A stretch of DNA of 64,000 nucleotides from Thermoanaerobaculia bacterium (lineage in GTDB: Bacteria > Acidobacteriota > Thermoanaerobaculia > Multivoradales > JBJKRB01). Below are positions 21,001 to 24,000 of the stretch, in pieces. Within the stretch, counting starts at the first letter, position 1; every line of letters begins with the position of its first letter. The stretch covers positions 11,819-75,818 of the forward strand of contig JBJKRB010000207.1 in assembly GCA_046704885.1 (NCBI GenBank), read 5' to 3'. Made by a program: the position numbers.

Positions 21001-24000
21001 GAGCGAGTCGCGGATCCCACTACCGAGGTCAGTGCGCGCAGCGACCGCTATCTCCTGCGGGTCGGCAAACGGCGCTTCGCCCGGGTCTTGGTCGAGAAGA
21101 GGGTGGATTGAGATGAGAACCCGCCTCGCCCTCGCCCTTCTTCTCTCGGTCGCCGCCGCCGGCTTCGCCCAGACGCGGACTCCCAACACAAAGCACGAGA
21201 TCGTCGGCATGCGTGGTCAGGTGCTCGGCAAGGAGGCGATCATCGAGGTCGTGGGACTTCCCTCGCCCGAAGCGCAGGCGAAGATCCGCCAAGCGTTCAC
21301 CGTGCTCGCCAATACCGAATCGCAGGTGTCGTCCAGTATCGCCGCACTCAACCGCAGCGCGGGCCAGGGGCCGCAAAAGCTCGACCCCAAGATCCTCCAG
21401 CTCCTCGGCCGTTCACTCGAGTACTGCCTATGGAGCGACGGAACCTTCGGCCCTCTGGGTGGCAACATCACGGATCTGTGGCGACAAGCCGCGGCCAGCG
21501 GCAAGCAGCCCAATCCCGACGACTTGAGCGATGCGGCACAGAGCGCCGCCTGCTCCCACATCAAATTCGAGCCCGCCCATCAGACCGTCGAGATCGCGGC
21601 CGGGAGCAAGATCGACATCTCTCCCTTCCTCACCGGATTCGCCATCGACCAGGCCGTTGCCCATCTGACGAAGGTGGGCGTCCACAATCTGCGAATCACC
21701 ATCGGGGATCTCAAGCGCGCTTTGGGAGCGGGCCCCACGGGGAACGGCTGGGATGCCGAGATTCCCGTCTTTTCCGGCCTGGCCGAGCCGCTCTCGCCGA
21801 TTCATCTCCACGGCGAGTCGATCGCCGTGGTCTCGATCCACTCTCATTCCCTCAGCGTCGGGGACCAACAATTCCCCGCCTTCTTCGATCAAACGACGGG
21901 GCAGCCCGAAAGCGGCACGGAAGCGGTGGTGGTCATCACCCACACCGCCCTCGATGCGCAAGCACTGGGTAGCTCACTGATGATCCTCGGCAATCGCGTC
22001 GGTGAGCTGCGCCTCGGCACGATCGACCCAAAGCCCGCGGTCCTCTGGGTTCTCGGCACAGGAGCGGGAACGCCTCTCCTCGATTTCTTCCACTGGTCGG
22101 AACGGCGCCTCAAGCATTGAGGCCGAGAGTGCCGACGAGCAAAGGCATCGCTTGCGTCACGAGCCCGCAAGTGAGCTCAGGGTTCTTGATCGCGGGGTTC
22201 GCTCCTCAGAGCCTCCCTCGACAGCCGCCGGAATCGGGCGCCCGTGCGGGCACTCGGAGGGGTAGTCGAGAAAAGCGTCGACCTGGTCTACGGCATCCGG
22301 CGCGAGCGGAATCACGCTGGAGGGATCCCTCTCTCGCCCCCTCTCCAGGGTGCGCGCGATCAGCACCTCGGCAAGACGAAAACGGCGCACCGCATTCAAT
22401 GCCTCGAGCCGCCCCCTGGAGGTAAAGGTTAGCCGGCTGGCGGAGAAGTCTAGTAAGCCCTCAGCCAGGAGCTCGGCGACCCCCGGCCGTTCGACCGACA
22501 CCGAACGCTTCTCCTCTTCGAGCCGACGCCAAAGGTCCGCCAAGAGCGCCGAACGCTCGTCGCTCGCCAACTCATTGGACCTCACCCTGCGCCCGTGCTC
22601 GAGCCGCACCTCGCGATCGGCGCGGGCCGCGATCGCGGGATCGTGCGTGACCAGAACGAGGGTGTGCCCACGGTCGTGCAGATCGGCCATGAGAGCCATG
22701 ACCAGAGCCTCGTTCACCGCGTCGAGATTGCCGGTCGGCTCGTCCGCCAAGAGGATTGGTGGATGGTTGATCAGGGCGCGAGCGATACATACCCGTTGCT
22801 GCTCGCCTCCCGAGAGCTCGCGGGGCAGGTGGTTGAGCCGCTCGCCGAGACCGACCCGGGTGAGCGCCTCCTCCGCCTCATCGCGGTCGGTCATGCTGTG
22901 AACGTACTGCGCCAGCATGATGTTCTCGAGCGCGGTCAGATAGGGAATCAGGTGAAAGCGCTGGAAGACCAGGCCCACCTGCTCGCGGCGGTACCGCGCG
23001 CGCGCCGCCGGAGCGAGGGATGAGAGGTCTTTGCCCTCGACCACGACGCTCCCATCGCTCGGCGTGTCGAGACCAGCGAGAATGTTCAGCAATGTGGTCT
23101 TGCCCGAGCCGGAGGGCCCGGTCACCGCCACCCACTCGCCGGCTTCGACCGTGAGCGCGAGTCCGTCGAGAGCTCTCAGGTTGCCGAACCGCCGGCCGAG
23201 ATTATCGATTTCAATCTGCGCCATGAGTTTCTCTACTCTCCGGCGAGGACCACTGCGGGCTCGAGCCGCCGGACCCTGCGCAGCGCAACCGACATGGCGG
23301 CAACGACCACCAGAACCGCGACCCCGGCCGCCGAGACCAGCGCGACACCCGCCGCCGTCCATGAGAGGGAGACGCTCACCTCCAGCAACCGCCGCGAGAG
23401 CTCGACTCCGAGAGCCAGACCAACGAGCGCCCCGCTGGCGGCGGCGAGCAGTGAAGCGGCGAGCAATTCTAGAGCTAGAACGCGCTCGACCCGCCTGCTC
23501 TGGGCTCCGAGCGCGAACCAGAGTGCAAACTCCGCGCGCCGCTCGCCCACCAGCGCCGAGGTCGCGGTCATGACCGCCAGAACCGAAAGCAAGAGGGTCA
23601 CGAGGCTCACCGCGAGGAGAAGCAGGGTCACCCGCGAGCTGAGCTCAGCGTCCGACCGGCTTACCTTGAGCAGCGGTTCGGCCTCGATCCCGGGAACCCG
23701 TCGTTCAATCGCGGTCGCGACCTTTCCCACGGCGCCGCGCGATGCCGCCACCGTCCCGGTGGTCCGCACTTCGATGCGCTCGAAGCCCGGCGCCAGCCCC
23801 CACCGTTCATGATCGGCCCACGGGACGATGATCGCTCGATCCAAGGAATCGCCCGTCGTTACCGTTCCGCTCATGGTCGATCGCCGGGCGGCCAACGCCC
23901 CGTGGACCTCGCCTCCCATTACCGCACTCCCCAGGACGACCTGGCCGCTCTGCGGCCATCTTCCTTTGAGCGCCCAGCTCGAATGAAGGGCGGGCCACTC

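Follow-up and report, generated by a model that had tools for sequence, protein, structure and literature searches.

A DtxR-derived C-terminal domain on the FetD-like ABC ATPase of a Fur-headed FTR1 iron-uptake operon in Acidobacteriota

The FetMP-FetABCDEF (P19/cFtr1) iron-uptake systems of Campylobacter jejuni and Escherichia coli comprise an FTR1 permease, two FtsX-like permeases and one ATP-binding cassette (ABC) ATPase. The genes fetM, fetA, fetB, fetC and fetD are each required for growth under iron limitation, and of the FetBCD ABC transporter it is stated that function and substrate "remains unclear" (PMC10783030). ABC ATPases with an extra domain directly after the nucleotide-binding domain (NBD) are known from ModC (TOBE), MetN (C2/ACT-like) and MalK, in which two copies of the domain pair below the NBDs and ligand binding blocks NBD closure; ModBC and MetNI are trans-inhibited through domains of this kind (PMC4245157). 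According to the same review, ModE, the transcription factor of the Mod pathway, has a ligand-binding domain similar to the regulatory domain of ModC (PMC4245157). Among the metal-dependent regulators of the DtxR family (DtxR, IdeR, MntR, MtsR, SloR and ScaR), MtsR senses manganese at its primary site 1, composed of H76, E80, C123 and H125 plus E160 (PMC6698748). The present analysis concerns a stretch of 64,000 nucleotides (in the following, the window) from a Thermoanaerobaculia bacterium (assembly GCA_046704885.1, contig JBJKRB010000207.1, positions 11,819 to 75,818), and therein an iron-uptake operon whose ABC ATPase continues in-frame into a C-terminal domain (in the following, the tail) that derives from a DtxR-family regulator.

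The fusion gene forms a single open reading frame (ORF) of 355 codons on the minus strand, starting with ATG at 23224 and ending with a stop codon at 22157-22159, exactly where a preliminary description of the window had placed an in-frame fusion of a LolD/MacB-type NBD with a DtxR-family domain. It contains zero internal stops and no Met codon past residue 179, which bears out the earlier statement that neither a stop nor a Met separates the two domains. A GGAGAG motif is located 12 nt 5' of the ATG, just past the stop codon of the preceding permease gene. The start was placed at 23224 rather than at 23362, the end of a longer listed ORF, because the latter overlaps the permease gene and homologues begin at the equivalent of 23224. 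The fusion protein belongs to the ABC transporter ATPases (PF00005; ABC_tran match with E = 1e-37 over residues 19-164), and all ATPase motifs are intact: Walker A (GPSGSGKT), signature (LSGGEQQR), Walker B (ILLADEP) and H-loop (VTHD). The catalytic motifs are invariant in alignments of 30 and 66 homologues.

The NBD is closest to MacB, LolD, YbbA and FtsE, the top NCBIfam matches, all of which score far under their equivalog cut-offs. Since the partner genes encode FtsX-fold permeases, one of them with a MacB periplasmic core domain (MacB_PCD), NBD clade and gene context together place the protein, as judged by sequence, among the MacB/LolD/FtsE-type (type VII) ABC systems. From MacB, LolCDE and FtsEX it differs by these low equivalog scores and by its iron-uptake context. 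To our knowledge, no comparable C-terminal sensor domain is known in MacB, LolCDE or FtsEX systems.

Searched alone, the tail (last 141 residues) matched PF02742 with 37.8 bits against a gathering cut-off of 27 (E = 2e-9), i.e., the DtxR-family match of the C-terminal part is significant by itself; in the fusion protein the PF02742 domain spans residues 221-333. The NCBIfam DtxR model (E = 3.6e-8) covers DtxR residues 33-144. Against solved structures of the DtxR family in the PDB, the tail yielded E = 1e-7 as single sequence and 1e-10 as profile, the best profile matches being IdeR, SloR and 5zr4. Similarity to a subfamily of stand-alone DtxR-like proteins was unambiguous (hhalign probability 99.9%, E = 8e-32). 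These nearest stand-alone relatives are of ~220 amino acids (aa), share with the tails the helix 1 pattern EE.LE..W and the motif IC.LLGHP..CPHG.PIP.G.CC, and carry a C-terminal extension, identified as FeoA domain in P0124, the member tested. The motif alignments quoted in the preliminary description, RRFRLAEVLI with RKHRLAERLL and ECPHGRPIP with SPFGNPIP of DtxR, hold and go far beyond chance. In common with DtxR-family regulators, the tail possesses the homologous dimerisation/metal-binding domain, the RRxRLAE helix with its Glu ligand (DtxR E83, MtsR E80), remnants of helix 1 and of the wing, and a CPHG loop equivalent to C123/H125 of MtsR, SloR and ScaR. An AlphaFold2 (AF2) model of the isolated tail reached a mean predicted local distance difference test (pLDDT) value of 78 and ~95 over tail residues 11-80; in tail numbering, helices span residues 10-26, 38-43 (only 6 residues), 58-87 (the long helix) and 98-108, with a beta hairpin between the second and the third. 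In a Foldseek search with this model, all 36 best matches were DtxR/IdeR/MntR/SloR-family structures or the DtxR-like SSO2273 (probability 0.82-1.0). These comparisons show that the C-terminal 140 residues descend from a DtxR-family regulator.

The preliminary description had spoken of a complete DtxR/IdeR-like metalloregulator, which proved to go too far. While PF02742 was matched by all 31 fusion tails examined, the DNA-binding domain PF01325 of DtxR was detected in none of them, the window protein included, even at E <= 1. Profile-profile alignment with the stand-alone DtxR-like proteins revealed a 13-residue gap in the tails, and alignment against DtxR places this deletion over helix 2 and the first part of the recognition helix (helix 3). 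Neither an SH3 nor a FeoA domain was found in the window protein by Pfam search. Hence the tail differs from DtxR-family regulators in its position C-terminal to an ABC ATPase domain, in a shortened helix-turn-helix (HTH) unseen by PF01325, in the lack of SH3/FeoA, and in the unconserved positions of M10, H79, C102, E105 and H106 in the window copy. On these grounds (HTH truncation, loss of SH3/FeoA and of ligands, attachment to the ATPase) it does not qualify as a transcription factor of the DtxR family. What is retained according to alignment and model is the helical dimerisation/metal-binding domain together with a truncated winged helix; the tail is a module of DtxR origin whose DNA-binding head is crippled. 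Because the DNA-reading helix and most of the classical metal ligands are lost, a role in on-board regulation or dimerisation is more likely for the tail than one as transcription factor.

The fusion is conserved well beyond the window. A 100% identical protein (P0002) exists in public data, and the survey for NBD-DtxR fusions among the best 120 homologues (64-83% identity) revealed PF00005 plus PF02742 in every one of them, with lengths of 336-372 aa in all but one, which at 542 aa reads through into ApbE. A pattern scan of related genomes, restricted to one genome per species, yielded 60 loci, all from Acidobacteriota (Thermoanaerobaculia, Holophagales or unclassified), 56 of which encode Walker A and tail in one stop-free frame; two of the other loci run into contig ends, and a further two were not resolved, one of these having its halves in different frames. 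Within the sub-clade of the window protein, the ratio of nonsynonymous to synonymous substitution rates (dN/dS; rough values, as dS is near saturation) amounts to 0.04-0.11 for the tail core (residues 221-333), equal to that of the ATPase domain, and to ~0.5 for the fast-evolving last 22 residues (identity 36-45%). A distant second group from a Candidatus Solibacter metagenome-assembled genome (MAG) and from further MAGs labelled as Terriglobia (P0275, 409 aa, 44% identity) displays identical domain architecture and a corresponding operon, and the P0275-type tail is matched by at least 1392 clusters at 90% identity. Public annotation of this architecture, which is common in metagenome-derived protein sets, is merely the automatic "ATP-binding cassette domain-containing protein", and the literature search returned no description of an ABC ATPase-DtxR fusion.

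Some databases list "stand-alone" PF02742 proteins of 137-206 aa among the relatives of the tail. These were considered as split versions of the fusion and rejected for locus L065 (GCA_035295685.1), where public annotation calls just the last 137 aa (6001-6414) and the DNA contains one uninterrupted ORF of 405 aa including the ATPase; on account of partial calls of this kind, stand-alone PF02742 proteins may seem more numerous than they are. The gene call in locus L064 is fragmented, possibly from long-read indels. One protein (P0030, 542 aa) is annotated with ApbE, ABC_tran and Fe_dep_repr_C, its tail running into Arg/Pro-rich sequence; this triple architecture is probably a frameshift or gene-call artefact. 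Two further architectures were observed: P0267 (435 aa), in which a DtxR-like domain is joined to an ABC-3 (MntB/ZnuB-like) metal permease, and P0144 (450 aa), in which a DtxR-like domain sharing the ELLERLW helix and the VCTFLGHPPACPHG motif is fused to a FeoB-type Gate-domain fragment. The P0144 sequence beyond the tail looks poor in quality. Based on these two fusions, a wider, undescribed habit of attaching DtxR-like sensors to metal transporters is suggested.

Candidate metal ligands were assessed by counting conservation among 163 family members, four of which form the sub-clade of the window protein; DtxR ligand numbering was checked against hidden Markov model alignments, with the position of M10 placed by eye. 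In the window protein, DtxR M10 corresponds to L227 (mostly Val in the family, not a ligand residue), H79 to F282 (mostly Val), E83 to E286 (22367-22369, minus strand; Glu in 163/163), C102 to P301 (Cys in 159/163), and E105 and H106 to V304 and I305, which are variable across the family and stand next to the invariant P306. DtxR H98 has no clearly alignable counterpart in the window tail. The primary-site set (M10, C102, E105, H106) is therefore absent from the window protein, and the family majority keeps only the C102 equivalent. At the ancillary or MtsR-type site, E286, C325 and H327 are present: C325 and H327 (C325-P-H327 at 22244-22252, minus strand) align with C123 and H125 of MtsR, SloR and ScaR and are found in 163/163 each. 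The His79/His76 position is occupied by F282, and no FeoA domain is available to add a ligand. By alignment, three of the MtsR site 1 ligand positions are thus kept.

Most Thermoanaerobaculia members possess, in addition, C301 at the DtxR C102 position, C316, H321 and a CC motif. Four positions occupied by Cys or His in most of the family are changed in the window protein: 316 (Cys in 154/163) to Asp, 321 (His in 155/163) to Tyr, and 337 and 338 (Cys in 143/163 and 117/163) both to Gly; position 316 is acidic (Asp/Glu) in the sub-clade and not neutral. In the Terriglobia type, H326, E330, C350, E353 and H354, equivalent to DtxR H79, E83, C102, E105 and H106, are invariant, as are C365, H370, C374, H376, C385 and C386. 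The Terriglobia orthologues (P0275/L061, 8001-9230; L065, 5197-6414) further carry a His/Cys-rich wing insertion of ~40 residues with invariant H277, H282, H284, C291 and H292, which may represent a further metal site. Across the 163 sequences, the pattern indicates that the family descends from a real metal sensor and that the window copy is its most reduced form, and makes a metal site on the tail plausible. The earlier view of a metal sensor directly on the transporter motor accordingly stands in part: a DtxR-derived module does sit on the motor, and most classical DtxR ligands are replaced in it, E286, C325 and H327 being left.

The fusion gene is the last in a minus-strand operon with the order fur, FTR1 plus DUF2318, two FtsX permeases and ATPase (Table 1).

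Table 1 Features of the fusion gene and its operon (positions refer to the window)
Feature	Position	Strand	Basis and remarks
Fusion gene: FetD-like ABC ATPase plus DtxR-derived C-terminal domain	22157..23224	-	Single ORF, 355 aa plus stop; Pfam ABC_tran and Fe_dep_repr_C
NBD, residues 1-214	22583..23224	-	Walker A 23096-23119, signature 22793-22816, Walker B 22736-22756
Linker RSNELA, residues 215-220, NBD-tail joint	22565..22582	-	AF2: last NBD strand 212-214, helix from 221
Remnant winged-helix region, residues 221-267	22424..22564	-	Helix 1 (LLADLWRRLEEE), 6-residue helix 3 remnant, beta-hairpin wing
DtxR-type dimerisation/metal-binding domain, residues 268-333	22226..22423	-	PF02742 above gathering score; alignments to IdeR, SloR, ScaR, MtsR
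Variable C-terminal end, residues 334-355 plus stop	22157..22225	-	Probably disordered; pLDDT <50; lacks the CC motif of most relatives
FtsX-type permease 2 (FetC-like)	23233..24348	-	Pfam FtsX
FtsX-type permease 1 with MacB periplasmic core domain (FetB-like)	24345..25562	-	Pfam MacB_PCD and FtsX; synteny
FTR1 iron permease fused to DUF2318/FtrD-like domain (424 aa)	25562..26836	-	Pfam FTR1 and FtrD-like; NCBIfam EfeU
Fur-family regulator, first gene of the operon	26829..27326	-	Pfam FUR, E = 2.7e-30; synteny
Perfect 10-3-10 palindrome TTATTGAGAC-GAT-GTCTCAATAA	27337..27359	.	~10 nt upstream of likely fur start

All related loci of sufficient length keep this order, and the permease 2 gene is located directly upstream of the ATPase gene wherever the contig reaches that far. 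The order is also kept in the Terriglobia loci, but no fur gene is called there. In the window, fur probably starts with the ATG at 27326; its listed ORF reaches to 27398. Translation of the FTR1-DUF2318 gene revealed two REGxE motifs in the FTR1 part and CxxC-x13-CxxC-x14-C in the DUF2318 part, the latter as described for C. jejuni protein 1651/FetA (PMC6083913); the same fusion occurs in the Terriglobia loci L061 and L065. Judged by its gene content, the operon is a compact relative of fetMP-fetABCDEF (Campylobacter fetM/fetABCD), with which it shares the FTR1 permease, two FtsX-like permeases, a single ABC ATPase, the DUF2318 domain with its cysteine motif, and Fur-type regulation, with fur as first gene of the operon here and a Fur-binding sequence ahead of the cluster in C. 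jejuni. The two differ in that FTR1 and DUF2318 form one protein here and the separate FetM and FetA in Campylobacter, in the fur gene within the operon, and in the DtxR-derived tail, none being mentioned for Campylobacter FetD. P19 and thioredoxin (FetE/F) genes are not in the operon, with P19 not searched for across the whole window.

The palindrome preceding fur is unique in the window, where 0 are expected by chance, and is AT-rich in a genome of 65% GC. Its core TTGAGA-N5-TCTCAA is present exactly once per locus in 42 of 63 related loci, near the start of the fur match. It is a candidate, and probably the actual, operator of the fur-FTR1-ABC operon, and might represent a lineage-specific Fur box.

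The operon is neighboured by a glutamate dehydrogenase gene and by a convergent gene of the ApbE family (FAD:protein FMN transferase, i.e., flavin adenine dinucleotide:protein flavin mononucleotide transferase) at 21032-22120 on the plus strand, separated from the fusion gene by a 36-bp gap. The ApbE gene stays near in most related loci, which suggests a functional link to the iron-uptake cluster; in about a dozen of the 60 loci, ApbE lies directly downstream of the fusion gene. In locus L002 (8270-11938), the fusion gene is directly followed by a second ApbE gene and by genes for a porin-like protein of the outer membrane, for an FMN-binding protein resembling flavinylation substrates, and for a small multi-pass membrane protein. 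This four-gene module, which the 64-kb window lacks, occurs in 31-35 of the 60 related loci and agrees with the reported link of FTR1/P19 clusters to flavinylation (PMC8238504).

With moderate probability, the tail is a metal-responsive regulatory domain that gates ATPase activity. The ATPase is the FetD counterpart in a MacB/FtsX-type ABC complex of the Fur-headed FTR1 iron-uptake operon of a Thermoanaerobaculia-like acidobacterium. Because one ATPase gene accompanies two different permease genes, two ATPase copies are expected under a permease heterodimer, which would set two tails side by side beneath the NBDs. There, the tails could pair via the DtxR dimer interface, the hydrophobic positions of which (L288, L293, L307, F318 and L319) are kept in the window tail. 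A metal, likely Fe2+ or Mn2+, bound to a putative site of E286, C325, H327 and perhaps D313/D316 would shift the geometry between tail and NBD and hence NBD closure on ATP. Such a device would provide quick post-translational feedback on iron uptake, atop the transcriptional control by Fur. The farther-reaching proposal, that a grafted DtxR-type metal-sensing core on a FetBCD-like MacB-type motor lets cytosolic Fe2+/Mn2+ switch this motor directly, is put forward tentatively, at somewhat less than even confidence. Of the roles suggested in the preliminary description, allosteric gating by cytosolic metal is the reading that we infer to be the best one, and a membrane-tethered transcription factor is unlikely.

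ModC and MetN, whose C-terminal regulatory domains exert trans-inhibition, provide the parallel; in the present system the effect of the tail may be inhibition or activation. As in these ATPases, the extra domain is immediately C-terminal to the NBD, here behind a 6-residue linker; with a single ATPase gene for two permease genes, it would be present in both NBD copies. The differences are in fold (helical DtxR type versus beta-barrel or ACT-like) and in transporter type (MacB/FtsX versus type I importer), and regulation is putative in the present system.

Several observations weigh against a metal-gated tail. Candidate ligands are few in the window sub-clade, which lacks C301, C316, H321 and the CC motif as well as equivalents of H79, E105 and H106, such that its candidate site consists of only three known ligand positions; the MtsR site also uses H76 and a residue of the FeoA domain, neither of which is in the window protein. 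Structure prediction is only moderately confident at residues 295-333 (pLDDT 63-92, depending on the model), and the Foldseek matches have weak E-values (8e-3) and template modelling (TM) scores of ~0.45. The known cases of trans-inhibition are type I importers and not MacB-type complexes. Neither DtxR nor an additional FetD domain is mentioned in the two studies of Campylobacter (PMC10783030, PMC6083913), so that the system can work without such a domain. Alternatively, the tail, derived from a sensor, may by now do no more than dimerise or stabilise the two NBDs constitutively, with metal sensing gone in the sub-clade. In agreement with this, four or five conserved Cys/His of the family are replaced in the sub-clade (P301, D316, Y321, G337, G338), the hydrophobic residues of the dimer interface are kept, and the strong purifying selection on the tail is equally explained by a structural role. 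A purely structural tail is nonetheless rather unlikely, considering that E286, C325 and H327 are invariant in the sub-clade as in all other members, that position 316 was swapped for a potential ligand (Asp/Glu) and not for a neutral residue, and that orthologues retain complete ligand sets. An iron-sulfur cluster, or sensing of thiol/redox state instead of free metal, would suit the Cys-rich tails, i.e., most members with their five conserved Cys (C301, C316, C325, C337, C338) plus His, and the Terriglobia type with invariant C291, C350, C365, C374, C385 and C386, and the system does comprise redox modules (CxxC motifs of DUF2318; ApbE and an FMN-binding protein in many related loci). The window protein, however, retains C325 as the only one of these Cys, which precludes such a mechanism for the protein itself, and the CPHG...CC motif is shared with the stand-alone DtxR-like consensus that has FeoA domains and fits ordinary metal sites; this explanation is accordingly improbable.

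The remaining alternatives return to transcription or to the integrity of the gene. A further regulator, such as Fur or a free DtxR-like protein, might dock on the tail, which would couple transporter state to transcription. This has a precedent in the regulatory domain of MalK, which binds MalT (PMC4245157); the DtxR dimer interface might in principle accept a free DtxR-family protein as partner, and a conserved palindromic candidate operator precedes the operon. The conserved cluster is, however, devoid of any DtxR-family gene, and the two tails per complex can fill the interface by mutual pairing, leaving docking with little probability. Still a little less credit is given to direct DNA binding, either by a membrane-tethered transcription factor or by an internally initiated free tail. 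Such binding would accord with the repressor-family origin of the tail and with the conserved palindrome at the operon start, but PF01325 is unmatched in 31/31 tails, the 13-residue deletion costs the tail helix 2 and, as read from the alignment against DtxR, the DNA-contacting beginning of helix 3, helix 3 measures just 6 residues in the AF2 model, no Met follows residue 179, and Fur from the operon head is the obvious ligand of the palindrome. Finally, a sequencing or assembly artefact joining two genes, as might be thought of in view of the 137-206 aa "stand-alone" PF02742 entries, has next to no probability: Walker A and tail share one frame in 56 of 60 independent genomes and the domains are joined in >120 proteins, the "stand-alone" call of L065 lies inside an uninterrupted ORF, and purifying selection at the codon level spans junction and tail. 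A frameshift or stop artefact was ruled out by homologue architecture, open frames and dN/dS.

Regulatory domains on ABC ATPases are already known. What is new is the DtxR origin of such a domain and its placement on the MacB-type motor of an FTR1 system, and the few folds known to serve as built-in regulatory domains of ABC ATPases are thereby extended by that of DtxR. If the tail is a metal-responsive regulatory domain, motor activity would be tied to cytosolic metal status, there would be evidence that the ATP use of the ABC module is coupled to iron entry through FTR1, and the first metal trans-regulation in a type VII ABC system would be at hand. FetBCD is part of the widespread FetMP/P19-FTR1 clusters and is needed when iron is limiting, also in the pathogen C. 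jejuni (PMC10783030); the fusion makes its role more testable. The tail further exemplifies how the sensor domain of a transcription factor may be reused for post-translational control once the DNA-reading head is lost. The graded series from the full DtxR ligand set (Terriglobia) via the Cys-rich form (most Thermoanaerobaculia) to the minimal Glu/Cys/His set of the window protein could reveal the evolution of sensor specificity.

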